From: Escherichia phage 241
DNA: 64,000 nt
Reading direction: 5' to 3' (one strand)
Sequence record: OR924452
How positions within the stretch are numbered: the first letter of the stretch is position 1; every line of letters begins with the position of its first letter. The position numbers were made by a program, and so were the translations under genes. The notes below the pieces were generated by a model that ran no database searches, was not told where the DNA came from, and worked only from the letters and a program-made list of their open reading frames with translations. This document shows, piece by piece, positions 691 through 64,000 of this stretch.

Positions 691-1179
691 ATGGCTACTA
701 CCAAAACTCTGATCACCAACGGCACCATCTCTTTTGAACTGAACACCGAAGTTGCAAAAGTTGAAATGTTCCGCATCGCTCAGGCAGCTGGCTTCACTGG
801 TGGCAAAACTTCCTTCATGAATCTGCTGAACGGCAAAGTGAAAGCGACCAACGGCTTCACCCTGGTAGAGCAGGTTGTCGTAGACAAAGCCGTGGTTGCC
901 AAAACTGCTGACAAGGTTGGCATGCTGAAAGACCTGGGCCATGACATCCACGTTGTCGAAGCGAACACCGAAACTTACGGCACCATCGTAGTCGGAAAAG
1001 GGCGCATTCAGCTGAACCCGCTGAACAACGGAACCTTCTCCGTGATGGTATTCCCGAAAAAGGGTTATGACAACAGTGATATCGTGAAAGCCGCTGGCGG
1101 TGAAGCGAAATCCCAGTATGTCAAAATGGGTAAACTGAGCGCCGACGCAGTAGAAACTCTGGTGAGCAAACTGGCATAA
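691..1179 (+). CDS. abundant hypothetical protein (162 aa), strongly codon-optimised
   Basis: GAGGAA Shine-Dalgarno 8 nt before ATG at 691; codon usage dominated by CTG/GGC/ACC/AAC/CGC unlike neighbouring genes; terminator directly downstream. Confidence 0.6.
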   Translation: MATTKTLITNGTISFELNTEVAKVEMFRIAQAAGFTGGKTSFMNLLNGKVKATNGFTLVEQVVVDKAVVAKTADKVGMLKDLGHDIHVVEANTETYGTIVVGKGRIQLNPLNNGTFSVMVFPKKGYDNSDIVKAAGGEAKSQYVKMGKLSADAVETLVSKLA

Positions 1180-1184
1180 GACCC

Positions 1185-1212
1185 AAGGGGAGGCAACTCC
1201 CCTCCTTATTCA
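1185..1212 (+). terminator. rho-independent terminator
   Basis: Hairpin AAGGGGAGG-caac-TCCCCTCC then TTATT. Confidence 0.5.
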
Positions 1213-1233
1213 GATTTTTGGTAGGAGATTATC

Positions 1234-1422
1234 ATGGGACGTCCGATTATCCACGCTTCAGAAGGTGCTATCTGGGTTATGACCCGCATTCCTAACGTTC
1301 ATTTCCCTCAGTTTCAAGAAGAAATCGAGCAAGCAACGCTAACGATCCTGGAAAAATACGGGTACGACACTGAAGTCCGTGAATCCTTCAACGAAATTAT
1401 GCCTGTGGTGGTTGCGCGATGA
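1234..1422 (+). CDS. hypothetical protein (62 aa)
   Basis: ORF preceded by GGTAGGAGA RBS. Confidence 0.45.
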   Translation: MGRPIIHASEGAIWVMTRIPNVHFPQFQEEIEQATLTILEKYGYDTEVRESFNEIMPVVVAR

Positions 1423-1724
1423 AACTGTCCCTCGAACAAATCGGCGAAGCAACATGCCAACTCCTGAAGGAAAAGACAGGCAAGCAGTGGAAGCATCAGT
1501 TGTTCAAAGATCACCCTGATGGCGTAGGGGCGATCATGATTGATAGCGAAGAGTCAACAGCCGTCCTCTTCTACTGGCAAGATACTGGCCGCTGGTCGGC
1601 TCAGACTTATGGTGGGAATAAGCAATCTAACTTCGTGCCTTCACCAGTGGAGGCATATGAAAGTCTGAAGAGAGGCATTCAAATGCAGATCGTTAGTCTG
1701 AACACTCTTTTGTCAACTATCTAA
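1419..1724 (+). CDS. hypothetical protein (101 aa)
   Basis: ORF with ATGA overlap to upstream gene. Confidence 0.45.
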   Translation: MKLSLEQIGEATCQLLKEKTGKQWKHQLFKDHPDGVGAIMIDSEESTAVLFYWQDTGRWSAQTYGGNKQSNFVPSPVEAYESLKRGIQMQIVSLNTLLSTI

Positions 1725-1794
1725 CATAACAGTTCCTCAAGTCAGTTCACTTTCACTTTAAATACCTCTGCAATCACTGCGGAGGTATTTTCTT

Positions 1795-2589
1795 ATGGCC
1801 ATTCTAAAACTTGGCAACCGAGGTTCTGAAGTCAAATCACTTCAGCAAAGCCTCAATAAAATCGGGTTCTCTCTTGTAGCTGATGGCATATTTGGCAAAG
1901 CGACTGAGAATGCCGTCAAATCCGTTCAGGCAGGTGCCGGACTGGTGATTGATGGTATTGCAGGTCCAAAAACCTTCTATGCTATCCGTAATGCCGGAGA
2001 CGCTCATCAGGAACATCTTACCGAAGCCGACTTAGTTGACGCAGCGCGTGAACTTGGTATCGAACTGGCCAGCATGAAAGCTGTTAACCAGGTCGAATCT
2101 CGGGGAACGGGTTTCACCAAAACAGGTAAGATCAAAACTCTGTTCGAGCGCCACATCATGTATAAGAAAGTGGCGGCTAAATTCGGACAAGCAAGAGCCA
2201 ATGCTCTGTACCAACTCTACCCAACATTGGTTAACCCCAATTCTGGTGGCTATATCGGCGGAGACGCGGAGTTGGAACGCCTTCAGGGTGCAATCGCCCT
2301 TGATGAGGACTGCGCGTACGAGAGTGCGTCCTACGGCTTATTCCAGATCATGGGGTTCAATTGCCAGATATGTGGTTATCCGAACGCCAAAGAAATGTTC
2401 ACAGATTTTCTGACTGGTGAACGTGCACATCTTCTGGCATTTGTGAAATTCATCAAAGCTGACGCCAATATGTGGAAAGCATTGAAGAACAAAAATTGGG
2501 CCGAGTTCGCCCGTCGGTACAATGGTCCAGCATATGCCAAGAACCAGTATGACACCAAACTAGCGGCGGCATACAAGAGTTTCTGTTAA
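1795..2589 (+). CDS. endolysin: N-terminal peptidoglycan-binding domain plus C-terminal N-acetylmuramidase-type domain
   Basis: N-terminus GSEVKSLQQSLNKIGF...DGIFGKATENAV...DGIAGPKT is a PG_binding_1-type repeat; C-terminus contains YGLFQIMGFN typical of the phage muramidase family; GGAGG RBS. Confidence 0.8.
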   Translation: MAILKLGNRGSEVKSLQQSLNKIGFSLVADGIFGKATENAVKSVQAGAGLVIDGIAGPKTFYAIRNAGDAHQEHLTEADLVDAARELGIELASMKAVNQVESRGTGFTKTGKIKTLFERHIMYKKVAAKFGQARANALYQLYPTLVNPNSGGYIGGDAELERLQGAIALDEDCAYESASYGLFQIMGFNCQICGYPNAKEMFTDFLTGERAHLLAFVKFIKADANMWKALKNKNWAEFARRYNGPAYAKNQYDTKLAAAYKSFC

Positions 2590-2590
2590 C

Positions 2591-2617
2591 AAAAGGCCGG
2601 AAACGGCCTTTTTCTTT
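2591..2617 (+). terminator. rho-independent terminator
   Basis: AAAAGGCCGG-aaa-CGGCCTTTTTC. Confidence 0.6.
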
Positions 2618-2694
2618 ATCTAACATACAGGTATGCTGGGCGCGTCGCTTAATTAAAGGTGTCGACAACCCCTGTAGATATAGGAAGGTTCAAC

Positions 2695-3534
2695 ATGCAA
2701 TCTGCGTCTAAAGTTGTATCCATGAAGCCAGCGAAGACAAAATCTGCTCGTAAGAAAGACACCATCCAGAAGGAAGAAGACTGGATGAAGTTTTCCAAAG
2801 GCGATTTCAAAATTGCTCCGTTCAATGGCCTCTCAGAAAATCAGAACCTCGCATATCAATCCGCACTCAATGAACATCTCACCATCGCTATCGGTCCGGC
2901 AGGTACAGGCAAATCCTATTGTGGTGCGTCCGCTGCTGCCAAGCATCTGATTGACAAAACCATCAACAAGATTATCATCACGCGTTCTCCTTTACCGACT
3001 GGAACCACAGCGGGGTTCCGGCCTGGTGACACATATGAAAAGCTGATGCCTTATTTGATGCCGCTCATACAGACATTCAAAAAGGTTCTCAAAACAGATA
3101 CGGGTTCCGACGGTTTCTTCAACTATCTGTGGGAGAAACGCATCATAGAAATTCAAGACCTTGAAACTGTGAAGGGGATGACTTTCGATGATTGTTTCCT
3201 GATTATCGAAGAGGCGCAGGAATGCGATATGGAGCAACTGAAAAACTTATTGACTCGTGCTTCAGATTCTTCGTACATCTTCGTAAATGGAGATATCAAA
3301 CAGTCTAACAAGCGACTGCGTGATAGTGCGTTACAGACGTATGTGGATTCCTTTAAAGACTTCAACAACAAGCTGGAAACAGGTTCTTTGCAAATTGACG
3401 GTGTAGAAATCGGAGATGAATATCCTGAGTGGGTTCAGCCATTCAGCATCATCGAATTCGATAAGTCTGATCGTAATGGTCGCGGTAACTTCACCCGCCT
3501 GATGTTAGAAATTAACGACCTGTACAACATTTAA
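2695..3534 (+). CDS. phoH: PhoH-like ATPase
   Basis: Walker A AIGPAGTGKSY and overall PhoH-like architecture; start moved to ATG at 2695 with AGGAAGG RBS (the track start at 2659 is GTG). Confidence 0.8.
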   Translation: MQSASKVVSMKPAKTKSARKKDTIQKEEDWMKFSKGDFKIAPFNGLSENQNLAYQSALNEHLTIAIGPAGTGKSYCGASAAAKHLIDKTINKIIITRSPLPTGTTAGFRPGDTYEKLMPYLMPLIQTFKKVLKTDTGSDGFFNYLWEKRIIEIQDLETVKGMTFDDCFLIIEEAQECDMEQLKNLLTRASDSSYIFVNGDIKQSNKRLRDSALQTYVDSFKDFNNKLETGSLQIDGVEIGDEYPEWVQPFSIIEFDKSDRNGRGNFTRLMLEINDLYNI

Positions 3535-3618
3535 ATACCACACGAACTTCCCCGTCGCCTTCAATCCATGGAGGCGACGTATAATAACAGCCTGCATTAA
3601 CACAAACCGAGGATCGCT

Positions 3619-5901
3619 ATGATTAACATCATAAAGCGGGACGGATCTTCTGTCCCCTTTGACATTGAAAAACTCCACACTGTTCTTGAACGTGCCTGTG
3701 AAGGATTAGAAGGAGTTTCGGTGTCTGAGGTGGAAGCAGCATCGAAGATTCAGTTCACAGACAATATGAAAACCGAACGCATTCAGGATATTATCATCCA
3801 AGCGGCGGCTACATTGATTTCTGTAGAAAAACCCAACTACCAATATGTTGCTGCCCGCCTGAAATCGTATGACCTGCGCAAAGTCGTCTATGGGCGATAC
3901 AAGCCACCTCACTTGCTTGATATATTCGCTAAAAACATCAAGCAGGGCGTTTATGATCGTGAATTCCTCGAACTCTATACGAAAGAAGAATTTGAAGAAC
4001 TGAACACGGTCATCAATCACAAACGCGACAAGAATTTTACTTGGGCGGCTATGGGCCAGCTCACGCAAAAATATCTTTTGCGCGATCGCTCAGCAGACAG
4101 CAAAGTATATTACGAAACGCCTCAAGTCATGTATATGGCGATCGCGATGGCTCTGTTCTCTGCATGGGGCAAAGAAACTCGCCTGACGATGGTGAAGAAA
4201 TTTTATGAATACGCCAGCACAGGTAAATTCAGTCTTCCAACGCCCATCATGTCCGGCGTTCGTACCCCAACCCGCCAATTCAGTTCTTGTGTTCTTATCA
4301 AAACTGGTGACACTTTGGACTCAATCAATGCTACAGCCAAAAGTATTGTTGATTATGTATCCAAACGCGCTGGGATCGGATTTGATGTCGGAGCAATTCG
4401 CGGCATCGGTAGCCCTATCCGAAAAGGCGAAATGGTGCACACAGGCCTGGTTCCTTTCATCAAATATCTGACTGGGGCATTAAAGTCTTGCTCTCAAGGC
4501 GGTATTCGTGGCGGATCAGCAACTTGCTATATCCCTATCTGGCATTATCAATTTGATGATGTTGTGGTCCTGAAGAATAACCGTGGTCTTGAAGAGAACC
4601 GTGAACGCCGTATCGACTACGGTATTCAGATCAACCGTGTCATGTTCGAACGTCTGGTGAACAAACAACCCCTGTATTTGTTCGATCCGAAAGACAACCG
4701 CGATATGTACGAAGCGTTTTTCGCAGATGTCGATAAGTTCCGTACCCTGTACGACAACATGGTCAAAGCTGCTGATGCTGGTTTGGTTCGTGCCAAGAAG
4801 ATGAATGCGGAAGAAGTATTCCAGATGTTGTTGGATCAGCGTTCAGATACAGGCCGCATCTACATCGCGTTTGTCGACCACATGAACCAGTACAGCCCAT
4901 TCAATCTAGACACAATCTATAGTTCTAATCTGTGTCTGGAGATTGCGCTTCCTACTCGTGAATTCCAACAGTACGACGATGAAGAAGGTCGGATCGCTCT
5001 GTGTACTTTGGCCTCTTTTAACCTGACGGCGTTTGAAGACCCGACAGAAATGGAAGACGTTGCATATGTCTTGGTTTCGGCTTTGGATATGCTGCTGGAA
5101 TACCAAGATTATCCAGCACGTCAAGCCCGTCTGGCTGTGGAAGAATATCGTCCTCTGGGTATCGGTGTCGTCAACGTTGCACATTTCTTCGCCAAGAACT
5201 TCACGGGGTATGGATCTCCTGTTGGGTTAGAACTCCTGGACAAGTGGATGGCGCACCTGCATTTCTATCTGGTAAAGGCTTCGAATCGTCTGGCCATGAA
5301 GTTTGGGGCATGTAAGAAGGAAACCATTCATCGTTCTGGTAAGATAACAGCCGACCTTCAACCGTTGCCGCTGGATATCCTCCCCAATGGTAAAAAGCCG
5401 GAAGGTATGGCATACGGCCTTGACTGGGACGGTTTGAAAGACTCTCTGCGTTACCATGGTATCCGCAATGCTACTCTCTTGGCGATAGCACCAACTGAAA
5501 GCTCCTCTCAGGTGCTGAACGCCACGAATGGTATAGAGCCACCCAAAGGCCTCATCAGTATCAAAGGCAGCAAGGATGGCGTTTACAAGCAGATCGTTCC
5601 GGACGTTGAAACCCTTGGTCCTCTATATGACCTGAAATGGAATCTGTCTTGTATCGACTATTTGAAAACAGCGGCGGTCGCCCAGCGTTGGGTAGACCAA
5701 TCCATCAGCGTTAATACACATTATGATCCAGAGAAATTCCCAGACGGGAAGATCCCGCGCTCTCTCATGATGCAGGATATTCTGTCTTTCTACATGTGGG
5801 GTGGTAAAACTCTGTATTACAACACCAACAAAGACTCTAAGGAAGATGAAGAGTTGAAACAAATTGAAGATCCGAATCACTGTGACACCTGTGTTGTCTG
5901 A
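3619..5901 (+). CDS. nrdA: ribonucleoside-diphosphate reductase large subunit (class Ia, N-terminal ATP-cone)
   Basis: 760 aa; N-terminal INIIKRDGSSVPFDIEKL ATP-cone; global resemblance to T4/E. coli NrdA including the YQYVAAR region. Confidence 0.9.
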   Translation: MINIIKRDGSSVPFDIEKLHTVLERACEGLEGVSVSEVEAASKIQFTDNMKTERIQDIIIQAAATLISVEKPNYQYVAARLKSYDLRKVVYGRYKPPHLLDIFAKNIKQGVYDREFLELYTKEEFEELNTVINHKRDKNFTWAAMGQLTQKYLLRDRSADSKVYYETPQVMYMAIAMALFSAWGKETRLTMVKKFYEYASTGKFSLPTPIMSGVRTPTRQFSSCVLIKTGDTLDSINATAKSIVDYVSKRAGIGFDVGAIRGIGSPIRKGEMVHTGLVPFIKYLTGALKSCSQGGIRGGSATCYIPIWHYQFDDVVVLKNNRGLEENRERRIDYGIQINRVMFERLVNKQPLYLFDPKDNRDMYEAFFADVDKFRTLYDNMVKAADAGLVRAKKMNAEEVFQMLLDQRSDTGRIYIAFVDHMNQYSPFNLDTIYSSNLCLEIALPTREFQQYDDEEGRIALCTLASFNLTAFEDPTEMEDVAYVLVSALDMLLEYQDYPARQARLAVEEYRPLGIGVVNVAHFFAKNFTGYGSPVGLELLDKWMAHLHFYLVKASNRLAMKFGACKKETIHRSGKITADLQPLPLDILPNGKKPEGMAYGLDWDGLKDSLRYHGIRNATLLAIAPTESSSQVLNATNGIEPPKGLISIKGSKDGVYKQIVPDVETLGPLYDLKWNLSCIDYLKTAAVAQRWVDQSISVNTHYDPEKFPDGKIPRSLMMQDILSFYMWGGKTLYYNTNKDSKEDEELKQIEDPNHCDTCVV

Positions 5902-5932
5902 TTAGGTCTATACCACACAATCGTTTAATATC

Positions 5933-5957
5933 AGGGGTGATTCGTCACCCCTTATTC
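5933..5957 (+). terminator. hairpin between nrdA and nrdB (possible attenuator)
   Basis: GGGGTGA-ttcg-TCACCCC followed by TTATTC; weak U-tract. Confidence 0.35.
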
Positions 5958-5971
5958 ATCAGGAAAGAAAC

Positions 5972-7075
5972 ATGAACGAACAAAAGCAATTCTCAGTATT
6001 CGATCCATCTTCAAATAATGCAGGACTGCCATTCTTTGGCGACCCTGTAAGTATCCAGCGTTATGACAAAGTGGCTTGGCCTTTTGTTCAAAAATGGTAT
6101 GAAAAAGGCCTCAGCCAATTCTGGCGTCCGGAAGAAGTGGATGTCACCAAAGACAAAGCGGACTTTGCCACTCTATCCGCTGCGGAACAACACATCTACT
6201 TCAGCAACCTGAAACGCCAAACCATGCTGGACTCTATTCAGGGCGCTGCTCCGTTCGAAGCGTTTGGCCCGTGGGCATCAACACCAGAAGCGCAATTTGC
6301 TATTCTGGAATGGACGCGCCAAGAAGCCATCCACTCACTATCTTACACGCATATCCTTCGTAACACAGTGAATGATCCTGGTATCGTTTTTGACCATGTT
6401 CTGGACGTTCAGGAGATCGTCGATTGCGCCGGACAGATCAGCGTATACTACGACGACATGGTGCGTTACAGCGGGATGCGTATGGCTGGACGCGCGTTCA
6501 CCCGTGAAGACATCATGAACGCCAAGCGTGCATTCTGGCGTGCTCTGTTTGCTGCTAACTCCCTCGAAGGCGTCCGTTTCTATGTTTCATTTGCGTGTTC
6601 TTGGGCATTCATGCAATTCCTCAACAAAATGGAAGGCAATGCCAAGATTATTCGCCAGATCGCTCGTGACGAGCAAGATCACCTCATTCTGACACAGACT
6701 TTCCTGAATCGTCTTCCGTTGTTAGACCCTGATTTTGGTATCATCCGTGAAGAACTGCGTGGCGAAATGACTCAGATGTATGTGGATGTGGTCAACCAAG
6801 AGAAAGAGTGGGCGAACTATCTGTTCAAAGACGGATCCATGCTGGGTCTGAACGCAAATATCTTACACCAAATGGTTGATTGGCTAGCAACACATCGTAT
6901 GGGCGCGATTGGCCACCCGTACCCTGGGCAAGCCCGTAAAGACAATCCGGTTCCATGGATAAATGAGTGGCTAGATAATAAAACAATGCAATACGCATTA
7001 CAGGAAGCGGAAGCCCCTGATTATCTGACTGGTGTCCTTACTGGATCAGTCTCCGACGGTCTGAAATTTGTTTAA
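5972..7075 (+). CDS. nrdB: ribonucleoside-diphosphate reductase small subunit
   Basis: 367 aa; FWRPEEV motif and di-iron ligand pattern typical of NrdB. Confidence 0.9.
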   Translation: MNEQKQFSVFDPSSNNAGLPFFGDPVSIQRYDKVAWPFVQKWYEKGLSQFWRPEEVDVTKDKADFATLSAAEQHIYFSNLKRQTMLDSIQGAAPFEAFGPWASTPEAQFAILEWTRQEAIHSLSYTHILRNTVNDPGIVFDHVLDVQEIVDCAGQISVYYDDMVRYSGMRMAGRAFTREDIMNAKRAFWRALFAANSLEGVRFYVSFACSWAFMQFLNKMEGNAKIIRQIARDEQDHLILTQTFLNRLPLLDPDFGIIREELRGEMTQMYVDVVNQEKEWANYLFKDGSMLGLNANILHQMVDWLATHRMGAIGHPYPGQARKDNPVPWINEWLDNKTMQYALQEAEAPDYLTGVLTGSVSDGLKFV

Positions 7076-19622: not shown

Positions 19623-19694
19623 TTTAACTCAGAAGCATTCAATAGATGAAGGGGCTGCTATAATAGCAGCTCCTTTTGTTTATTGGAGCACACC

Positions 19695-20357
19695 ATGTCG
19701 TATTCGCTCAAAGGGTTGTTGAAGCGCCCCGTACATCTGTTTGTAAAACCACCTGCTGTCGAAGGGGAATATCCGGCACGAGGAGAGTTGTATTACGTTA
19801 AAGGCTCCAACGGTAGCGGCAAGTCCACTGTCCCTTCCTATCTGGCGGAGAATGATCCTCAGGCGTATGTCGTGACCTACAATGGCAAGATCATGCTCAC
19901 AGTTTGCCCTTCCTATAACATTATCTGTATTGGTAAATATGACAAGTCTAAGTCTAAAGGTGTTGATTCCCTGAAAGATACCGAGCAGATGTTGTTCGCC
20001 TTGTCCATTGCTGATCAGCCGGAATATCTGAAATATGACGTGTTGTTTGAAGGAATCATCCCTTCAACTTTGCTCAGCTCATGGATTCCCCGCCTGACGC
20101 GCCCACCGCGCGAATTAGTCGTGCTCTTCATGGACACCCCGCTTGAAACCTGTGTTTCCCGTGTGAAATCACGCAACGGCGGCGCAGACTTCAATGAAAG
20201 CCTGGTTGTCGAAAAGTGGGAGAGAGTTCATGACCACCGCCAACGGCATAAAGGCTTGTTCCCTACCGTTCCCGCAGGTATGATGAAGTCCAATGGCCTG
20301 ACTATAGAGCAGGCTGTTTTTGCGTTTCTCAATCGCGATTTTGGGAGTATTGATTGA
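19695..20357 (+). CDS. P-loop kinase-fold protein (candidate nucleotide or DNA-base kinase)
   Basis: Walker A GSNGSGKST; about 220 aa; TTGGAG RBS; directly upstream of the pyrimidine hydroxymethylase. Confidence 0.55.
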   Translation: MSYSLKGLLKRPVHLFVKPPAVEGEYPARGELYYVKGSNGSGKSTVPSYLAENDPQAYVVTYNGKIMLTVCPSYNIICIGKYDKSKSKGVDSLKDTEQMLFALSIADQPEYLKYDVLFEGIIPSTLLSSWIPRLTRPPRELVVLFMDTPLETCVSRVKSRNGGADFNESLVVEKWERVHDHRQRHKGLFPTVPAGMMKSNGLTIEQAVFAFLNRDFGSID

Positions 20358-21397
20358 TGGAAATTTTTGCTTTAAACAATAATGATATGCTGAAGAAGGC
20401 TGTGTTGGCCATCCGTGAACACGGCATTGAGTCAGATCCTGGCAACGCAGAGATTAACACGGACGGCACTCGTTTCATTGATGGTGTAACAATTACAGTA
20501 TCAGATCCACGTGATCGTTGGCTTTCCGTTGAAGGCCGTAACTCGTCGGCAATTGCTGCCATCGGTGAGACATTCTGGGTGTTGTCCGGACGTAATGATA
20601 TCCGTTTCCTTTCGAAAGTCTTACCCCGCGCCGCCAACTTCTCTGATGACGGTGTAACCTGGCGAGGCGCGTATGGCCCACGTCTGTACAATAATGGCCA
20701 GTTGGATAGTGTCATCAGCCGTCTGCGTAATAATCCCAACACCCGTCAGGCGTATCTCACCATCTATGATCCGGCGCTGGACTCAGATGAAGGTTTGGCC
20801 GCCCATAGTGAAACTGGAGAAGCCAAGACCAAGGACATGATCTGTAATCTTGCTCTATTGTTCAGTATAACAGAAGGGCGATTGAATATCACTGTCATTA
20901 ACCGCAGCCAAGATGTCTTGTGGGGTATGAGTTCAATCAATTTCATTGAATTCTCTATCCTGCAAGAAGTTCTGGCGAAAGTGCTGAATGTCGAAGTTGG
21001 GTATTACAAACTGTTTTCTAACAATCTTCATTATTACAACAATGAAGTTAGTCGGAAACAACTCGGGGGTATCACTAAGAAGACCAAAACTTCTTCTGGG
21101 ATGTATAATTCTTTGCTGGAATTCTCTTCAGAAAAAGTGAAGTCGCAAAAAGATATTTGTAATCTATTCCTCGGCGTGTTACATCACTGTGACATCGGCA
21201 GTGATTTTGGTAAAATCAGAGAACATCTGAAAGGATATCAAGCAGACACGGGATTGATGATGGATATGTCATATTGCCTGTGGTGTCGACTCAATGATAC
21301 CAAAATTGACAAACGCCGTATCGCTGATGACGGTCTTCGTACTGCATTACTGCATTCCTCTGTTGATCAGAAATTTATGTGGGGGTATGGCGAATGA
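20354..21397 (+). CDS. deoxypyrimidine-nucleotide hydroxymethylase (thymidylate-synthase superfamily, gp42-like) with C-terminal extension
   Basis: RQAYLTIYDP and DMICNLALLFSI...VINRSQDVLWG parallel T4 gp42 RRGIMIYTRP and DFMCTNTVQYLI...VNMRSNDVVFG, including the catalytic Cys; 347 aa vs 246 aa in T4. Confidence 0.7.
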   Translation: MMEIFALNNNDMLKKAVLAIREHGIESDPGNAEINTDGTRFIDGVTITVSDPRDRWLSVEGRNSSAIAAIGETFWVLSGRNDIRFLSKVLPRAANFSDDGVTWRGAYGPRLYNNGQLDSVISRLRNNPNTRQAYLTIYDPALDSDEGLAAHSETGEAKTKDMICNLALLFSITEGRLNITVINRSQDVLWGMSSINFIEFSILQEVLAKVLNVEVGYYKLFSNNLHYYNNEVSRKQLGGITKKTKTSSGMYNSLLEFSSEKVKSQKDICNLFLGVLHHCDIGSDFGKIREHLKGYQADTGLMMDMSYCLWCRLNDTKIDKRRIADDGLRTALLHSSVDQKFMWGYGE

Positions 21398-21963
21398 TGT
21401 ACCAGAACCTTGAATTCTTCACGGGGCGCAAGCGCTCCGGCAAGGACTTCTGTTTGGAGTCCCTGATCAGTTTTCATCATATTCAGGGTGATAAGGATAT
21501 TCGTCGTCTGTCTTTCTCAGATGAACTGCGACGTGTCGCCAATTTCATCTATCCATGGCTACCAGCGGAGGTGGAGGATGCTGTGAAGGACGTTCCATTC
21601 GTACACCCTGATAACCCCAAGGGCTTAACCCCACGGCAGATCTGGCTTCATCTGGGCAGCGATACGGGCTTGCGTTATGTACAACCAGACCTGTTCCTGT
21701 CATTCTTTAAACGATATCAACTTCCTTTGGTGGAGCAGAACCCACACGTTCATTATATCGTGAGTGATTTGCGTACCCCTCAGGAATATGAATGGGCGCT
21801 GAGCACTAAATGTCCCATCACCCGCATTTCAAAGGCGGATCGCGGTGGTATCATAGAGGATGACATTGAGGCTTTCATTGATAAGATGGAAGTTGATTAT
21901 GAATTTGTCAATCCGTTTGAAGGTTGGCAACCGTTCGTCAAATTTTATAGGGATCGGAAATGA
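21394..21963 (+). CDS. 1: deoxynucleoside monophosphate kinase (T4 gp1-like)
   Basis: P-loop FFTGRKRSGKDF matches T4 gp1 LSGVKRSGKDT; ATGA overlap with the hydroxymethylase. Confidence 0.7.
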   Translation: MMYQNLEFFTGRKRSGKDFCLESLISFHHIQGDKDIRRLSFSDELRRVANFIYPWLPAEVEDAVKDVPFVHPDNPKGLTPRQIWLHLGSDTGLRYVQPDLFLSFFKRYQLPLVEQNPHVHYIVSDLRTPQEYEWALSTKCPITRISKADRGGIIEDDIEAFIDKMEVDYEFVNPFEGWQPFVKFYRDRK

Positions 21964-22517
21964 TCACAGCAGAGCATATTAAAAGTCTGCTCGAACTTCA
22001 AAAGGCCACCAACGTGGCCTATTTTGGGGAAGAGTGGAAGAATGTATGGAGTCAGAACGCCGTCGTCAACTCCATATATCGTGAGTGGGCAGAGTTTCTT
22101 GACGAAACGACCGCCGACTGGAAGGTCTATGGTAACGATATCGGCTTCGACCGCACGAAGGCGGTCTATGAACTGGTGGACGTGGTTCACTTCATGCTGT
22201 GTTTCATCCTCGTCGATCGCACCAAAGGAGAGATCGAGGAAGAATTAGAGGAAATGTCTAAGGATAGTTATGCCATGTCTATCGTTAACGGCATAGTTGC
22301 CCACGGCGGGGTGACCTACCGCTTTGGACAGTTCATGGGCGATCCTTGCGTTCGTTCCCTGATGTATTTCCTGAGCGCGTCTTGCTCTTACGTGGGGCTG
22401 GGCGCCGAAACTTACATGCTGGCACACAAACGCAAAAATGATCGCAATCGGCTGCGTGCTGCTGGCGGTGCGAACTACGATAAGTCCGCAGAAACCCCTC
22501 TGACCCTGGAGTTCTAA
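21960..22517 (+). CDS. 56: dimeric dUTPase/dCTPase-family NTP pyrophosphatase (T4 gp56-like)
   Basis: ELVDVVHFMLCFIL aligns with T4 gp56 ELVDIFHFVLNMFV; N-terminal EW...W...E motifs; substrate cannot be assigned from sequence. Confidence 0.6.
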   Translation: MITAEHIKSLLELQKATNVAYFGEEWKNVWSQNAVVNSIYREWAEFLDETTADWKVYGNDIGFDRTKAVYELVDVVHFMLCFILVDRTKGEIEEELEEMSKDSYAMSIVNGIVAHGGVTYRFGQFMGDPCVRSLMYFLSASCSYVGLGAETYMLAHKRKNDRNRLRAAGGANYDKSAETPLTLEF

Positions 22518-23047
22518 TGTTTACAGTTGTCGTATCATATTATGCGGAACATGCCCCGCGCATGGCAGAGAACTTCGCTGAGTTTATTAAACCAGGCGGT
22601 CATGTCGTTATTGCGACCAATTTCAAGAAAGAGCCAGATGGTGCGGCTACTGTAACACAACATATTACAACCAAAGAGCCGGAAACACTTTTTAAACGCA
22701 TTGAAGATTTTGCTTTTGGCGGGGAAGAAATTCCAGAGTCATTACAGCATATCTATTTTGAAGATGCGATATATTATGTTCATGCTATACCAAAAGATGT
22801 TACAACCGAACAACTAATGTATGTTTTGAATATTGCGTTAAATTTGTCATGTGTCAACAGGGCACAGCATAATCGTTTGCGCAATATGTATTTAACAGAA
22901 CGCGGGGGTTCCGGAATCAGTGATGAAAAACTCCCGTCGGTAATGGCAATTCAAGAAGCAATTAACATATTGTCCAAGAAAGTCTTGGGCACCGATTTAT
23001 TAATCACGATCAACAAGCAAGAGGAAACGAAATGGCCGATTCATTGA
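22517..23047 (+). CDS. hypothetical protein (176 aa)
   Basis: ORF between the gp56-like gene and uvsX. Confidence 0.45.
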   Translation: MFTVVVSYYAEHAPRMAENFAEFIKPGGHVVIATNFKKEPDGAATVTQHITTKEPETLFKRIEDFAFGGEEIPESLQHIYFEDAIYYVHAIPKDVTTEQLMYVLNIALNLSCVNRAQHNRLRNMYLTERGGSGISDEKLPSVMAIQEAINILSKKVLGTDLLITINKQEETKWPIH

Positions 23048-24117
23048 TGGCTCGCATGCTCAAGACAGCAAAGAAATTGGATCCGAATGCCGAAGTGCTG
23101 TCTAAAACCGATGCGCTGAAGCCTGATATTATTTGTAGCACGGGTATTCCTATCCTGAATTTGGCCTGGTCTGGTCGTATTGATGGTGGGCTGATATCTG
23201 GTATTAAGCAGTTGGTGGGTGATTCTCGTACATTCAAAACCATGTTTGGTCTGGTAGATGTCAAGGCTTACATGGACAAGTTTCCCGACGCAATTTGTAT
23301 CTTCGCGGATTCGGAAGGCGGCGCGAATGAAAACTATTGGACGTCCATGGGTATCGACATGGATCGTGTTTTATATCTGCCGATCGAAAACGTTGAAAAG
23401 ACGAAGATCAAGCTGACTCAACTTCTGAATGATGCCCAAAAAGGCGATAAAATCATCGTCTTTATTGACTCAATCAGCCAGTTGCCGTCTACCAAAGAAG
23501 TGGATGACGCCATCGCGGGTAAAGATACACAAGATATGACCCGCGCTCGTGCTCTCAATAGTTTTTGGCGTGTCATCACTCCGTTGGTCACTGAAAAGAA
23601 ATTCGTTTTGGTGTGGATCAACTCTTATTATGATGAAATCGGGAACCAGTATGCCGAACCAAATATCAAAGGCGGTAAGCAAGGTTTCCTATCATCTAAC
23701 CAATTGTGGTTCATCACCCGTTCTCAAGTTAAGGAAGACAAAGATCTTCTGGGTTGGCAATTCACTGTTAACATCATGAAAGGCCGCTTTGTTCGTGAAA
23801 AAGCCAAGTTCCCTGTGACGGTATTGTATGAAGGCGGTATTGACCGTTGGTCTGGCATGTTGGAAATTGCACGCATGCTGGGATATGTTGATCTGGTGAG
23901 CGGTTCCTGGTATCAGCGTACAGCCAAAGGCGGGTTTGATCCAGAGAAAGAGAAGAAATATCGCAAGTCAGAGCTGGGGGATGACTTCTGGTATCCACTG
24001 CTGGAAAACCCAGATTTTGTTGACGATGTAAACAATATGTTCGGTATCTCTCAGAGTTCGGTTATGCCTGCAGATATGCTGGAGCGTCTCGATCATGTCA
24101 TCAAAACAACCGAGTAA
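23032..24117 (+). CDS. uvsX: RecA-like recombinase UvsX
   Basis: Extensive colinearity with T4 UvsX (PILNLAWSGRIDGG, VFIDSISQL, DMTRA, GYQFTVNIMKGRFVREK). Confidence 0.9.
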   Translation: MADSLMARMLKTAKKLDPNAEVLSKTDALKPDIICSTGIPILNLAWSGRIDGGLISGIKQLVGDSRTFKTMFGLVDVKAYMDKFPDAICIFADSEGGANENYWTSMGIDMDRVLYLPIENVEKTKIKLTQLLNDAQKGDKIIVFIDSISQLPSTKEVDDAIAGKDTQDMTRARALNSFWRVITPLVTEKKFVLVWINSYYDEIGNQYAEPNIKGGKQGFLSSNQLWFITRSQVKEDKDLLGWQFTVNIMKGRFVREKAKFPVTVLYEGGIDRWSGMLEIARMLGYVDLVSGSWYQRTAKGGFDPEKEKKYRKSELGDDFWYPLLENPDFVDDVNNMFGISQSSVMPADMLERLDHVIKTTE

Positions 24118-24424
24118 TATTGCAGGGGGAGGAGACTCCCCCGTTAATTACAAAATCATCGACCCTGGTTCTGATCAGTTAGCTATTATCGAAATAACGG
24201 AAGGCAAGTTCCGCGGTGTTCAATTTCGTGTAGGAAAAGTGGGTGTCCATGTAGACAATGGAGAACCTCGGTTATCCTTTACGACGGATATATTGAAGAA
24301 GCCATGGCGTTTGTTATTTGTTAATTTGAAAGAAAATGACTTGTTCACTGTGGTGTCTGGGGATATCTTAGTTGATCTGATACAGCAAAATGCTCAGGAT
24401 TACAACAAAATTTTGGTGGGGTAG
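24095..24424 (+). CDS. hypothetical protein (109 aa), in the position T4 gene 40 occupies between uvsX and 41
   Basis: ORF; positional analogy only. Confidence 0.4.
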   Translation: MSSKQPSNIAGGGDSPVNYKIIDPGSDQLAIIEITEGKFRGVQFRVGKVGVHVDNGEPRLSFTTDILKKPWRLLFVNLKENDLFTVVSGDILVDLIQQNAQDYNKILVG

Positions 24425-24430
24425 TTGCCA

Positions 24431-25855
24431 ATGTTACTCGAATCTGTCGTGCTTTCCCAATTAATCTACAATGAAGAATATCAAAGAAAGATCCAGCCGT
24501 ATTTGAAAGCCGATTATTTCGATAACGAAGGCGAGAAGATTATATTTGGTCTTATAGACCATTACACTTGCGAATATAATGCTCGTCCTTCGGTTGAAGC
24601 GCTGTCTATTATGCTGGAAAAGACTTCGCTCAACGAACACGTATTTGATCAGGCCATTTCTGCTCTTGAAAATATTAATGACAATACTTTTCATCAGGAC
24701 TGGTTAGTAAAAGAAACAGAAAGTTGGGCGCGCCAGAAAGCTGTTCATAACGCAATTAGACAAGCCGTTAACATATACGGCGATGAGAAACGCAAAGATG
24801 AGATGAACAACATCCCTACTTTGCTGCAAGAAGCCCTGGCGATTCAGTTTGATTCATATCTCGGTCACATCTATTGGGAAATGGCTGAGCAACAATACGA
24901 CCACATGAACTCTAATGAAGCGAAGATCCCTTTCGCCGTAGAGATATTCAACAAAGCAACTCGTGGTGGTGTTGGCAAGAAGACATTGAACATCGTTACA
25001 GGCGCAATCAACGCAGGTAAGACAACAACTCTGATTGATTTGGCTGCTGGTTATGCCGAGCAGGGGTTGAATGTGTTCGTATTCACCCTCGAAGTGGCCG
25101 AGAACGTCTGGCGCCACCGCCTTGATGCCCGTATGATGCGCAGGGACTTCGAGTCCTTAGAGAAGCTCTCACGGCACGAGTATATTGCCACCATACAAAA
25201 ACTGAGAACCCGTCAAGACGGTTCCATGAAGGGTGATATTGTTATCAAGGAATATCCTTCGGGCGCGGGGCATACAGGTTTGTATCGTCGCGATATTCTT
25301 GATTATGCGACTGCAACAGGAATTACGCCTGATGTTATCATCATTGACTACCTGGGGGAATCTGCGTCTTCTCGCCTTCCCGCTCACTTGATGCAAAACA
25401 CCAACGTGTATTATACATCCGTGGCGCGGGAATTCCGTGCTCTTGGGTTTGAGTTTGATTGCCCTGTTTGGACAGGCATGCAGTTTAACCGTGAAAAGCA
25501 ATCAGCAACTGATGGTGATATCAGTGACTTGGCAGACGCTATCGGTATCCCGAAGGTCGCTGACTTTATCATGGCATTTTATGCCCCAGACGAACTGGCG
25601 GCTGTTAAGAAAGCCAGAGCATCAATCTTGAAAAATCGTTATGCCAACAAGCAGAAACTCAAATCTTTCTTGTTCGGTATGGACCAAGATAAACAGATAT
25701 TGTTCGACTTGGACTGGAATGAAGTCAAACGAGACCTGACTGATGAAGAAGCCCGTTATGTTGAAAACGTGCATATCAAGCATGACTTGAATAAAACGGG
25801 GGACTCAAATGATGTTAAAAAAGCCGAGACCGTCAATAGTTGGAATTTCGGTTAA
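24431..25855 (+). CDS. 41: replicative DNA helicase (DnaB-like, gp41)
   Basis: Walker A GAINAGKTT and DnaB-like helicase blocks; ATG at 24431 (track start 24425 is TTG). Confidence 0.85.
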   Translation: MLLESVVLSQLIYNEEYQRKIQPYLKADYFDNEGEKIIFGLIDHYTCEYNARPSVEALSIMLEKTSLNEHVFDQAISALENINDNTFHQDWLVKETESWARQKAVHNAIRQAVNIYGDEKRKDEMNNIPTLLQEALAIQFDSYLGHIYWEMAEQQYDHMNSNEAKIPFAVEIFNKATRGGVGKKTLNIVTGAINAGKTTTLIDLAAGYAEQGLNVFVFTLEVAENVWRHRLDARMMRRDFESLEKLSRHEYIATIQKLRTRQDGSMKGDIVIKEYPSGAGHTGLYRRDILDYATATGITPDVIIIDYLGESASSRLPAHLMQNTNVYYTSVAREFRALGFEFDCPVWTGMQFNREKQSATDGDISDLADAIGIPKVADFIMAFYAPDELAAVKKARASILKNRYANKQKLKSFLFGMDQDKQILFDLDWNEVKRDLTDEEARYVENVHIKHDLNKTGDSNDVKKAETVNSWNFG

Positions 25856-39382: not shown

Positions 39383-39904
39383 TTAATTCCTTACTTTGTC
39401 AGGATTAGATAAGATTTGTTCGTATCCGACTTCTCCTTGATAGTCGAAAACATGCTGAAGAATCGCCATATCGTCTACCATCCGATAAACTTCAATTCCA
39501 GCGTTCATCAATTTTTTGATTCCATCCATAATACGATATGGCTCACGATAATATACTTTATCGATTTTACCGCTATCTATTATCTTTTGAGTGCAATTAG
39601 GGCAAGGACTATGTGTCACAAACATAACCAACCCTGTGAAATCATCTACATTTTCGGGGATACGCATTAGAGCATTTTCCTCCGCATGAACGACACACGG
39701 GTTTGTAACAATTTGCCCGTGTTGTTCCATCTCACAAACATTCGGCATGCCAGGAGGCGTTCCGTTCCATCCTATAGCCACAGGCTGATCAGTTTCAGGG
39801 TTTACAATAACACAACCGACTTGCAGACGCCGAGCATAACTGGTTACACCATATGCTGCAGCTGATCGCATATGAGCAAACATCATACGTGGTTTGATAG
39901 CCAT
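39383..39904 (-). CDS. cd: dCMP deaminase
   Basis: Zinc-binding motifs HAEENAL and PCPNC. Confidence 0.85.
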   Translation of the reverse strand: MAIKPRMMFAHMRSAAAYGVTSYARRLQVGCVIVNPETDQPVAIGWNGTPPGMPNVCEMEQHGQIVTNPCVVHAEENALMRIPENVDDFTGLVMFVTHSPCPNCTQKIIDSGKIDKVYYREPYRIMDGIKKLMNAGIEVYRMVDDMAILQHVFDYQGEVGYEQILSNPDKVRN

Positions 39905-40308
39905 TATTCACCTCTCAGAAGACGAGCGAAGCGTTCAACAATGCGATTGCGCGGCTTCTCGGGAACGATGTCTTCTACCGTAATGGTCAGTGTGTAGTTT
40001 GTAGAAAAATCGCAATCGGACTTTGTGATGATTTTCCGTTCACCAGGCAGCGGATACATCGTTAAAGCCCTATCGACGGAATCTAGAGAAGAACCGACCA
40101 AGTCCACCACCCTTTGGTGCCCGAACGATAATGGACCCACGACATCCTTTTCAAAAATTTCAATCACGTCGGTGACTAACACACCCAATGCAAGTCTTAG
40201 TCCAAGGTTCTGATTTTTATCCCCTAGTGTGTACACAAACTGCCGACGCCACAACTCTTTCCGGTCTTCAGAACGGACGAGAGAATAATTCAAATGGTAT
40301 TGTTTCAT
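39904..40308 (-). CDS. hypothetical protein (134 aa)
   Basis: ORF. Confidence 0.45.
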   Translation of the reverse strand: MKQYHLNYSLVRSEDRKELWRRQFVYTLGDKNQNLGLRLALGVLVTDVIEIFEKDVVGPLSFGHQRVVDLVGSSLDSVDRALTMYPLPGERKIITKSDCDFSTNYTLTITVEDIVPEKPRNRIVERFARLLRGE

Positions 40309-42724: not shown

Positions 42725-43387
42725 CTATGATAACTCATAGCGATGGCGGGTACATGCAGGGCAATTACAGTCTTTTCTCAAAATTGGCATTTCACACCAC
42801 GTCATCAAACCATGTATTGGAGACATGTGGTGATAAAACCATGATTTTTTGAGACTAATCAAAGGATATAAAATTTCAATTGGCCTTTCCCCGTCTCTTG
42901 TCATCATATTGTATCCTTCGATGACCTTATTGAAAGCTGGGATCCAGTGGATCGCGTCGTCCCCGTTGACATATGCCAATATGTATGTGGGAGGCAAACT
43001 CCGGCCTTTAAATTGTGTGTTTAATAACCATATCGGGGCTTGTGCTAAACACGCACGAAACCCGCCGTCCGGCACGTGAATGCTACTAATCGGTTCTTGG
43101 TGATGAGTCCAACGATGCATAAGAAGCGGAGCATTCTTGTTGATCCAATTATAAATTTTATTTCGCGCCCAATTCTCACGTTTGGATTTGAAATTATTAT
43201 TTTCAAGATGGCAATACACAGTATGAACCGAATAACCTTTCGATAATAACCAAACCAACATGTATGTGCTATCCACGCCGCCTGACCAAAACAATGTCAC
43301 TTCTTGATTATTTTCCGGCAAAGGTGCATCCCCTTGAAGGACACGGTACACAAATTCACAATCAGATACAGAGACAACGATTTCCAT
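42725..43387 (-). CDS. PP-loop ATP pyrophosphatase, QueC-like
   Basis: SGGVDST PP-loop near the N-terminus; C-terminal Cys cluster WCEMPILRKDCNCPACTRHR resembling the QueC zinc site; about 220 aa. Confidence 0.5.
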   Translation of the reverse strand: MEIVVSVSDCEFVYRVLQGDAPLPENNQEVTLFWSGGVDSTYMLVWLLSKGYSVHTVYCHLENNNFKSKRENWARNKIYNWINKNAPLLMHRWTHHQEPISSIHVPDGGFRACLAQAPIWLLNTQFKGRSLPPTYILAYVNGDDAIHWIPAFNKVIEGYNMMTRDGERPIEILYPLISLKKSWFYHHMSPIHGLMTWCEMPILRKDCNCPACTRHRYELS

Positions 43388-50301: not shown

Positions 50302-50880
50302 TTATAGACCAAATTTACCGCGCCATTTCTGTACTTTGTGTTCAATGGCATGCTCAACTTTGACTATGGTGCTTTTTAGGTTATGGTTGTGATCACAAGC
50401 CAGTTTGGCAGTGTGTCGGATGACACCATTTACCAAATCGGCCAGATTATCATCTGTTCTTTGTGGTTGGTTGAGTAATCTGGTAATGCGACCTTTGTAG
50501 TGGTTGATCATCGCTAGTTGCTCGTCCAAACTATCAACCCCACCACAGAACCAATAATCTTCTAATGTGTGTTGTGTGAGGTCACTTGTACCGTTGGCCC
50601 GAGACAGAGAGAACACGATCGAATCAAATATCTCGTCTTTGTTCATAGAGCCATATTGTTGAATATGCTGATATTCACAAACATACAACAAGTCCAGTGC
50701 TGAAATAATAACGTCTGCCACTTCACCATTCAGAGGTTCTGAAGCAGAAATTTCATATAACACGTCAGACAATTCGCAAGTTTCTTCAACAAGTTTACAG
50801 AACACAAATACAGATGGGCGATTCGGTTCTTTCTGGCTGAGTTCATAAGATGTTTCTAAGATGCGACGAATAAATTTCAT
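50302..50880 (-). CDS. MazG-like nucleotide pyrophosphohydrolase (tentative)
   Basis: LVEETCELSDV...GEVADVIISALDLL fits the MazG EExxE...E/D pattern. Confidence 0.4.
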   Translation of the reverse strand: MKFIRRILETSYELSQKEPNRPSVFVFCKLVEETCELSDVLYEISASEPLNGEVADVIISALDLLYVCEYQHIQQYGSMNKDEIFDSIVFSLSRANGTSDLTQHTLEDYWFCGGVDSLDEQLAMINHYKGRITRLLNQPQRTDDNLADLVNGVIRHTAKLACDHNHNLKSTIVKVEHAIEHKVQKWRGKFGL

Positions 50881-63508: not shown

Positions 63509-64000
63509 TCATCGTTTCAACAAAGACATGAGGTTTACACTGGTCGACTTCGGATTGTCCTCTATCTTCCGGACGGGCATTTTCAGATTAGTGTAAACCT
63601 CAGATGGTTCCCAACGCGTACCCTGCTGCAGGTGCCATATATGTAGAGGAACACCCGTCTCAAAGAACACAGGCATCTTCCACTTCTGGACGCCAGGAAC
63701 GTGCCCTGCAGGAGCTTTTTCGCATAACAGGGTATCTGGTAGCCAGAGGGAACGGGCTTCCCATAATGCCTTACAGGAGTACTCAGGCCAGATGCGTTCC
63801 ATGTAGTCGATCTCATCCCAAGTACGCTCGGCATCCCACCCGATGTAACGAGTGTTTTTCAGACGGAAGAATTTCTTAAGCCAACAAGCGCCGGAAGTCT
63901 CAAAGTTCAAACGATTGATGAACGTGATGTGACCAAACTCGGCGACACAATCTTTGAATGCCTGTTCAAGATCAGCCTCAAGGATGTCGCATTCTTCATC
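63509..64000 (-). CDS. 3' portion of a gene whose start lies beyond the window end
   Basis: Minus-strand frame open from nt 64000 down to the stop at 63509; function unknown. Confidence 0.45.
   Translation of the reverse strand, partial: DEECDILEADLEQAFKDCVAEFGHITFINRLNFETSGACWLKKFFRLKNTRYIGWDAERTWDEIDYMERIWPEYSCKALWEARSLWLPDTLLCEKAPAGHVPGVQKWKMPVFFETGVPLHIWHLQQGTRWEPSEVYTNLKMPVRKIEDNPKSTSVNLMSLLKR

Follow-up and report, generated by a model that had tools for sequence, protein, structure and literature searches.

A four-gene block of Escherichia phage 241 predicted to serve a ViI-type thymidine hypermodification pathway

The genome of Escherichia phage 241 carries adjoining genes for a P-loop kinase, a thymidylate synthase (TS) homologue, a dNMP kinase and an NTP pyrophosphatase, an arrangement that raises the question of which modified pyrimidine these proteins serve. 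The window analysed here, 64,000 nucleotides of sequence record OR924452, is a segment of a Kuttervirus (Ackermannviridae) genome and shares 98-99% identity with Salmonella phage ViI and related phages over most of its length. An earlier note on this DNA had proposed a hypermodification pathway derived from either hmU or hmC. The analysis reported below indicates that the block very probably belongs to the ViI-type thymidine hypermodification pathway, of which it would supply the pre-replicative half and the first post-replicative enzyme. The system is already known: the ViI pathway is the type example, described with its enzymes and product in papers of 2018 and 2021, and is regarded as a trait of the Ackermannviridae, across which its genes have been described as conserved (PMC11721090). 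Reading of the raw sequence alone had recovered a real hypermodification pathway.

The four ORFs adjoin one another on the + strand at 19695-20357, 20357-21397, 21394-21963 and 21960-22517 (start codons per the ViI annotation), confirming the block of adjacent co-directional genes described beforehand. At the three junctions, neighbouring genes share 1, 4 and 4 nt (TGATG, ATGA and ATGA), and all four are translationally coupled. An intrinsic-terminator-like hairpin with a 13-bp stem and a following T-run (19648-19676, +) ends the upstream gene, and a GGAG ribosome-binding site lies between this hairpin and the kinase ATG at 19695. Past the pyrophosphatase, the overlapping string runs on into a fifth gene (22517-23047) and then uvsX (23032-24117). 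Given that the 3-kb block recurs in 270 phage records, 198 of which cover at least 80% of it, the ORFs are taken to be real genes and not chance. Profile matches in Pfam and PHROG upheld the family assignments that had been made for all four proteins.

In phage ViI (Vi01, NC_015296; Lee et al. 2018 PNAS, 2021 NAR), the block agrees in gene content, order and orientation. The likeness extends to the flanks, with gene order preserved through uvsX and the gp41-type helicase, and includes the gp2-type end protector, a dCMP deaminase and the C-terminus of gp247. The window differs from ViI in having another, mosaic allele of the pyrophosphatase and in small indels elsewhere, with an extra 134-aa ORF beside the dCMP deaminase gene and no Vi01_083c between nrdA and nrdB.

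The first protein of the block (19695-20357, +; 220 aa) matched the Pfam family PF18748 (HMUDK_HMUD1) over the full profile (positions 1-196 of 196) with a score of 387.2 bits against a cut-off of 27 (E 1.6e-116). Its Walker A motif, GSNGSGKST, occupies residues 37-45. The protein is 99.5% identical across all 220 residues to its ViI orthologue gp67 (YP_004327432), which phosphorylates 5-hydroxymethyl-dU (5-hmdU) in DNA in vitro (PMC8989533). By sequence, therefore, the P-loop protein is identified as a 5-hmdU DNA kinase (5-HMUDK), the activity published for the nearly identical ViI protein. Its gene adjoins that of the predicted dUMP hydroxymethylase, and the C-terminal part of gp247 (aGPT-Pplase2) is encoded at 63512-64000. 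A search with a 5-hmdU DNA kinase profile had been suggested as a check, and the full-length PF18748 match, together with identity to the validated gp67, supports the suspicion that the additional P-loop kinase acts on hmU in DNA beside a dUMP hydroxymethylase, and with it the hmU-hypermodification reading. No significant match to the kinase was found among solved structures, and NCBIfam held no model for the kinase, the dNMP kinase or the ACT-like protein described below.

The second protein (20357-21397, +; 346 aa; orthologue of ViI Vi01_060c, 99.7% identical) is a member of the TS family (PF00303, 54.4 bits, cut-off 24.3) and falls in phrog_3676 (E 1e-182). Inspection of its sequence reveals the catalytic Cys163, Arg183-Ser184-x-Asp186, Asn195 and His225/Tyr227. 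In an alignment with E. coli ThyA and T4 gp42, Cys163, Arg130, Arg183, Ser184, Asp186, His225 and Tyr227 are invariant. At the position of E. coli ThyA N177, Asn specifies uracil, and Asp occupies this position in cytosine-specific enzymes. Asn195 aligns with N177 and with an Asn in the enzymes of phages CampHawk and Jack, whereas the equivalent residue is Asp in T4 gp42 and an Asp is aligned in MilA. The protein is 30-31% identical to the enzymes of an SPO1-like hmU phage and an M6-like phage, the latter also carrying HMUDK and a radical-SAM-like gene, and shares with both a C-terminal extension of ∼110 residues. All six NCBIfam ThyA equivalog models scored it at only 32-53 bits against cut-offs of 108-405, the best being 52.9 bits against 327. 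The TS-subfamily search proposed in the earlier note thus placed the protein below every canonical ThyA cut-off and in phrog_3676, not in phrog_160, the family of gp42.

The window contains no other TS-family gene, the whole ViI genome likewise has just one, and no T4-frd-like gene (DHFR) was found in either. A dCMP deaminase gene is present at 39383-39904 on the - strand (PF00383, E 2e-17; 99.4% identical to ViI Vi01_030), so that the reported lack of td and frd alongside a dCMP deaminase holds. Homology and context (a single TS-family gene and hmU-derived DNA) point to 5-hmdUMP as the product of the TS homologue. In the literature consulted, the hydroxymethylase, the dNMP kinase and the pyrophosphatase of ViI-like phages are likewise assigned by homology only.

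The third protein (21394-21963, +; 189 aa) is 100% identical to ViI dnk and belongs with T4 gp1 to phrog_139, with E values of 3.3e-48 for the phage 241 protein and 1.8e-65 for gp1. Its P-loop, beginning at residue 11, reads GRKRSGKD, as compared with GVKRSGKD in gp1. A phmmer search of the PDB gave no significant match. Homology and the logic of the pathway (PMC8989533) predict that it converts 5-hmdUMP to 5-hmdUDP.

The fourth protein (21960-22517, +; 185 aa) is an all-alpha NTP pyrophosphatase of the dimeric dUTPase / T4 gp56 family (PF08761, 31.7 bits, cut-off 22.9) and shares phrog_173 with gp56 (E 1.2e-39). The Campylobacter dUTPase structure 1w2y (C. jejuni) was matched with an E value of 0.0027, and the acidic metal-binding residues E42, E49, E71 and D74 are unchanged in the ViI protein and in T4 gp56. 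The NCBIfam dUTPase equivalog scored 29.9 against a cut-off of 300. Identity to the ViI protein is 62.7% overall and 45% in the central 119 residues; this swapped segment is nearer to the versions of Dickeya and Klebsiella Ackermannviridae. An allele at least 95% identical to that of the window occurs in only 19 of 349 records, and the sequence reads as a mosaic minority allele. The protein is predicted to be a dUTPase, possibly also a dTTPase, that would feed dUMP to the hydroxymethylase; because the allele is divergent, its specificity could differ from that of the ViI enzyme.

The fifth, translationally coupled gene (22517-23047, +) encodes a "phage ACT-like" protein specific to the Ackermannviridae (PF24021, E 2.9e-89) that is 100% identical to ViI Vi01_057c. 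A total of 273 phage records contain it, and in all 25 of those listed its gene is placed between the NTP pyrophosphatase gene and uvsX or next to them. A single-sequence AlphaFold2 model of the protein had a mean pLDDT of 44.2, too poor for use, and the protein is regarded as a candidate pathway member only.

Together, these assignments suggest the following scheme, which none of the findings contradicts. The dCMP deaminase and the pyrophosphatase, through hydrolysis of dUTP and perhaps dTTP, would provide dUMP, which the TS homologue would convert to 5-hydroxymethyl-dUMP by means of the Cys163 thiolate and methylene-tetrahydrofolate. The gp1-family kinase would form the diphosphate and a host NDP kinase the triphosphate, and the phage polymerase would insert 5-hmdUTP in place of T. 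Within the DNA polymer, the hydroxymethyl group would then be phosphorylated by the 5-hmdU DNA kinase, after which the gp247 orthologue would exchange the phosphate for serine, linked via the side-chain oxygen. Decarboxylation by a PLP enzyme, the gp226 orthologue encoded outside the window, would yield 5-(2-aminoethoxy)methyl-dU (5-NeOmdU). Both activities have been shown for the ViI proteins, serine transfer by gp247 and decarboxylation by gp226 (PMC8989533).

In the earlier note the four genes looked like a complete route, but they cover only the pre-replicative steps and the first post-replicative step. Elsewhere in the genome lie the genes of the remaining ViI enzymes (gp247, serine transferase; gp226, PLP decarboxylase; gp243, second kinase; gp160, aGPT-Pplase1), and of these the window includes only the C-terminus of gp247. 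This fragment (63512-64000, -; 163 aa), detected by tblastn, is 99.4% identical to residues 249-411 of the serine:DNA transferase and is cut by the window end. The search for aGPT-Pplase, PLP-dependent or glycosyltransferase partners was therefore rewarded in part, with the gp247 C-terminus found and no homologue of beta-glucosyltransferase. Pfam returned no match for the gp247 fragment, a MazG-like protein (50302-50880) or several neighbouring hypothetical proteins.

The modified base replaces ∼40% of T in the virion DNA of ViI and CBA120 (PMC5889632), and the same base was confirmed by LC-MS in a Taipeivirus at 16% modification (bioRxiv 10.64898/2026.05.19.726188). By analogy with the near-identical ViI proteins, 5-NeOmdU would be expected in the DNA of phage 241. 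This base blocks many restriction enzymes, and resistance of the phage DNA to many of them is to be anticipated in therapeutic, biocontrol or cloning work. The fraction of T that stays unmodified (∼60%) is beyond what the genes of the block account for.

A T4-like route, in which a dCMP hydroxymethylase and a dCTPase would place the modification on cytosine, draws on real similarities. T4 gp42, gp1 and gp56 represent the same three enzyme families and the same pool-exclusion logic, the two downstream genes share PHROG families with gp1 and gp56, and among solved structures the TS homologue is best matched (E 1e-17) by the CMP hydroxymethylase MilA. Pairwise BLAST of the T4 proteins against their window counterparts gave motif-level matches only, so the labels "gp1-like" and "gp56-like" rest on the common PHROG families. 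The chance that this route operates is practically negligible because the specificity position is Asn195, as in ThyA and the SPO1-like and M6-like enzymes, and not the Asp of gp42 and MilA; because a search with T4 beta-gt detected no beta-glucosyltransferase homologue in either the window or ViI; and because ViI and CBA120 contain a modified uracil and normal dC (PMC5889632). The different PHROG of gp42 also speaks against it, as does the dCMP deaminase, which would drain the dCMP pool. Of the two bases entertained in the earlier note, hmU is thus retained and hmC discarded. In T4, furthermore, the genes are dispersed and a DNA-level kinase is lacking.

If the database labels were followed, the TS homologue would be a normal thymidylate synthase, and the P-loop protein either a thymidylate kinase or the small subunit of a terminase. 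Such labels are used in most GenBank and RefSeq records, PHROG 800 is labelled small terminase, and Asn195 would equally suit the dUMP substrate of a true TS. That they are right is scarcely credible, given the ThyA equivalog scores, the full-length PF18748 match and the demonstrated phosphorylation of 5-hmdU in DNA by gp67 (PMC8989533). In ViI, the small terminase is encoded by another gene, Vi01_162c, next to that of the large terminase, and 5-hmdU-derived bases require a hydroxymethylase, for which a single TS-family gene is available. It is also highly unlikely that phage 241 uses the same pathway to reach an end product different from that of ViI, through allele replacement or other enzymes outside the window. 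The mosaic pyrophosphatase and the variable modification levels within the Ackermannviridae (ViI compared with the Taipeivirus) would be in keeping with such a difference, but the pyrophosphatase works on the precursor pool and not on the side chain, gp247, the product-determining enzyme, is nearly identical over its visible part, and identity to ViI reaches 99.5-100% for the kinase, the hydroxymethylase and dnk. Two further roles are very unlikely. In one, the divergent pyrophosphatase and the ACT-like protein would together tune which pyrimidine triphosphates are destroyed, and through this the hmU/T ratio and the hypermodified fraction. In the other, the gp67-type kinase, whose gene sits beside those of the precursor enzymes, would serve reversion of 5-hmdU to T, and gp243 and gp247 would make the hypermodified base.

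The ViI-type assignment can be set beside two other hmU-based systems. The Bacillus SPO1 group likewise combines a dCMP deaminase, a dUTP/dTTP pyrophosphatase, a dUMP hydroxymethylase and a dNMP kinase (PMC8989533). The TS homologue of SPO1-like CampHawk is 31% identical to the window enzyme, with the Cys, the Asn and the C-terminal extension in common. This group stops at 5-hmdU, whereas in the ViI-type pathway the DNA kinase and transferases would process hmU further; no 5-hmdU DNA kinase is annotated in the neighbourhood of the CampHawk TS gene. The 5-NedU pathway of the Pseudomonas M6 group (5-HMUDK gp54, aGPT-Pplase2 gp51, rSAM gp53 and PLP gp52) has the same kinase family and TS-homologue subfamily as the window, clustered, and in M6-like phage Jack the TS-homologue gene stands side by side with those for HMUDK, Nmad5 and a protein that matches radical-SAM weakly, under the Pfam cut-off. 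M6 transfers glycine, which is isomerised to a C-C-linked aminoethyl group, whereas the ViI-type pathway transfers serine and the ether link stays. The M6 genes also form one compact cluster, in contrast to the scattered genes of Kuttervirus.

Comparison of the block with public records exposed a persistent misannotation of the DNA kinase and the hydroxymethylase. The former appears there under the names "terminase small subunit", "thymidylate kinase" or "baseplate hub", the latter as "thymidylate synthase".

The four adjacent plus-strand genes of the putative modification module were found exactly where the earlier note had placed them, with start codons chosen by support from a ribosome-binding site and from the annotation of Salmonella phage ViI (Vi01; NC_015296), the reference Kuttervirus of the Ackermannviridae. 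They encode a 220-residue P-loop kinase with the Walker A motif GSNGSGKST (19695-20357), a 346-residue thymidylate synthase (TS) homologue (20357-21397), a 189-residue dNMP kinase (21394-21963), and a 185-residue NTP pyrophosphatase (21960-22517). Successive genes share stop/start overlaps of TGATG, ATGA, and ATGA, and gene overlap extends past the block through a fifth gene (22517-23047, +) into uvsX (23032-24117, +). On the upstream side, a strong terminator-like hairpin (19648-19676, +), with a 13-bp stem followed by a T-run, divides the block from the preceding gene. Its loop region reads TATAAT, and it lies only ∼18 nt upstream of the kinase start codon. No convincing sigma-70 promoter was found between the two; the module must be driven by either read-through or a phage-specific promoter.

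The Pfam model PF18748 (HMUDK_HMUD1, “5-hmdU DNA kinase”) spans the whole P-loop kinase, with an E-value of 1.6e-116 and a score of 387 bits against a cut-off of 27 bits. Across its full 220 residues, the protein also shares 99.5% identity with ViI gp67 (YP_004327432), the gene for which occupies the same position in ViI, adjoining thyA, dnk, and dUTPase. ViI gp67, like M6 gp54, is reported to turn 5-hmdU in DNA into a phosphorylated nucleotide (Lee et al. 2021, PMC8989533). The full-length domain match and the identity to gp67 bear out the earlier suggestion that a 5-hmdU DNA kinase sits beside a dUMP hydroxymethylase. The label “terminase small subunit” (PHROG 800, RefSeq) for this kinase is a misannotation, since a separate small terminase is present beside the large terminase of ViI. 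In GenBank and RefSeq records of related phages (e.g. NC_015296 Vi01_061c), the gene of the validated kinase goes under the names “terminase small subunit,” “thymidylate kinase,” “baseplate hub,” or “hypothetical.”

The TS homologue scores above the Pfam thymidylate synthase cut-off and is 99.7% identical to ViI Vi01_060c. When it is aligned with E. coli ThyA and T4 gp42, the catalytic Cys163, Arg130, Arg183-Ser184-x-Asp186, and His225/Tyr227 prove invariant. The presence of Asn or Asp at the position of ThyA N177 determines specificity for U versus C. This position is occupied by Asn195 in the TS homologue and by Asn in ThyA and the enzymes of phages CampHawk (SPO1-like) and Jack (M6-like); Asp is present in T4 gp42 and is also aligned in the CMP hydroxymethylase MilA, the best PDB match of the TS homologue. 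The nearest relatives outside the Ackermannviridae are enzymes of ViI-like Vibrio, M6-like Pseudomonas, and SPO1-like Bacillus phages (30-40% identity, compared with 22-24% to T4-type td or gp42), and a C-terminal extension of ∼110 residues is common to the TS homologue and the CampHawk and Jack enzymes. Scores against the NCBIfam ThyA equivalog models were 32-53 bits, for cut-offs of 108-405 bits. A second TS-family gene is absent from both the window and the complete ViI genome, and neither a T4-frd-like DHFR homologue nor a beta-glucosyltransferase homologue was found in either. Taken together, the residues, the relatives, the ThyA scores, and this gene complement fit a dUMP hydroxymethyltransferase and speak against an ordinary TS as well as a dCMP hydroxymethylase. 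In public records, the hydroxymethylase is nearly always named “thymidylate synthase.”

Pairwise BLAST of the dNMP kinase against T4 gp1 and of the pyrophosphatase against T4 gp56 aligned the signature motifs only (GRKRSGKD versus GVKRSGKD and ELVDVVHFML versus ELVDIFHFVL, respectively). PHROG 139 holds both gp1 and the dNMP kinase, and PHROG 173 holds both gp56 and the pyrophosphatase, with comparable E-values; the pyrophosphatase additionally exceeds the Pfam dUTPase_2 cut-off and retains the acidic residues E42, E49, E71, and D74. The labels “gp1-like” and “gp56-like” are therefore correct as remote-family assignments. By analogy with the hmU-phage scheme summarised in PMC8989533, the substrates would be 5-hmdUMP for the dNMP kinase and dUTP, perhaps also dTTP, for the pyrophosphatase.

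Within the module, the pyrophosphatase gene alone departs from ViI. Its product is essentially identical to the ViI protein at residues 1-26 and 146-185, but the central 119 residues (27-145) are only 45% identical. At ≥95% identity, the allele is present in 19 of 349 phage records; it shares 77-81% identity with the versions in Dickeya, Klebsiella, and some Escherichia Ackermannviridae, compared with 62-65% for the majority Kuttervirus allele (ViI, CBA120). On these comparisons, the gene is a recombinant minority allele. Translationally coupled between it and uvsX, the fifth gene encodes a “phage ACT-like” protein (PF24021, phrog_3839). The protein occurs in 273 records, all Ackermannviridae, and in the 25 records listed its gene lies between or beside the pyrophosphatase and/or uvsX genes. 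A single-sequence structure model (pLDDT 44) was too poor for searching.

The claim that the block forms a complete route to a modified pyrimidine holds for precursor synthesis and the first DNA-level step. It is overstated for the remainder, because the other enzymes of the ViI pathway are encoded at dispersed sites (gp247, the serine:DNA transferase; gp226, the PLP decarboxylase; gp243, the second kinase; gp160, aGPT-Pplase1), and only gp247 extends into the window, where the last 163 residues of its orthologue (63512-64000, −; 99.4% identity to ViI) are cut by the window end. In the proposed pathway, dUMP would be supplied by the pyrophosphatase and a dCMP deaminase (39383-39904, −), converted to 5-hmdUMP by the TS homologue, raised to 5-hmdUTP by the dNMP kinase and host NDP kinase, and incorporated by the phage polymerase. 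The DNA kinase would then phosphorylate the hydroxymethyl group in DNA, gp247 would substitute serine, and decarboxylation by gp226 would yield 5-(2-aminoethoxy)methyl-dU; these last three steps have been demonstrated in vitro with ViI proteins (PMC8989533). In both ViI and CBA120, ∼40% of T is replaced by this base (PMC5889632), and ∼60% of commercial restriction enzymes are unable to cut such DNA (PMC11721090). The pathway genes are described as conserved throughout the Ackermannviridae (PMC11721090), and the base was reconfirmed by LC-MS in a Taipeivirus at 16% of dT (2026 preprint, bioRxiv 10.64898/2026.05.19.726188). The reading as an hmU-derived hypermodification pathway stands because none of the contrary outcomes named beforehand (an ordinary nucleotide kinase or unrelated ATPase, a canonical dCMP hydroxymethylase with glucosyltransferases elsewhere, or only canonical or glucosyl-hmC bases in virion DNA) was encountered, the modified-base chemistry being that of ViI and CBA120. 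The system itself is the published type example, with nothing new in it.

The M6-like Pseudomonas phage Jack (PP661418) carries a compact cluster, annotated only as hypothetical proteins, at 858-6624 of the sequence analysed. It comprises HMUDK (PF18748), an HMUDK helical-domain protein (PF18723), an HNH endonuclease, Nmad5, the TS homologue, a weak radical-SAM match below cut-off, and a YfbR-like HD 5′-deoxynucleotidase that is likely a dTMPase. Of the genes that flank the TS homologue in the Kuttervirus window, none was seen to carry a nucleotidase annotation or match.

In megablast searches, the block matched 270 phage records, almost all of them from Ackermannviridae, with Salmonella phage PS5 (99.9%) as the top match; over 24-25-kb stretches of the window, the best records were 98.5-99.2% identical. 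Direct comparison with ViI showed collinearity across nearly all 64 kb, mostly at 98-99% identity, with a drop to 94-95% at ∼22.4-32 kb. Such collinear alignments of varying identity indicate that the window is a segment of a mosaic Kuttervirus genome. Vi01_083c (∼300 bp), which lies between nrdA and nrdB in ViI, is missing from the window (5964-5971). An HNH homing endonuclease precedes the gp41-type helicase gene in phage Sa157lw; in the window (24424-24425), nothing of the kind separates 24095-24424 from the helicase gene (24425-25855). The 42725-43387 (−) protein, whose ViI counterpart bears the annotation “QueC-like queuosine biosynthesis,” aligns with QueC, ThiI, MnmA, and ArgG models in the N-terminal PP-loop only (∼residues 27-70), and scores far under the NCBIfam QueC equivalog cut-off and barely above that of Pfam QueC; as judged from these matches, it is a PP-loop ATPase and not demonstrably QueC. 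Directly upstream of the dCMP deaminase gene, a 134-residue open reading frame (39904-40308, −) without a Pfam match is missing in ViI, relative to which it represents an insertion of ∼400 bp, and is also carried by Escherichia phage Sa157lw.
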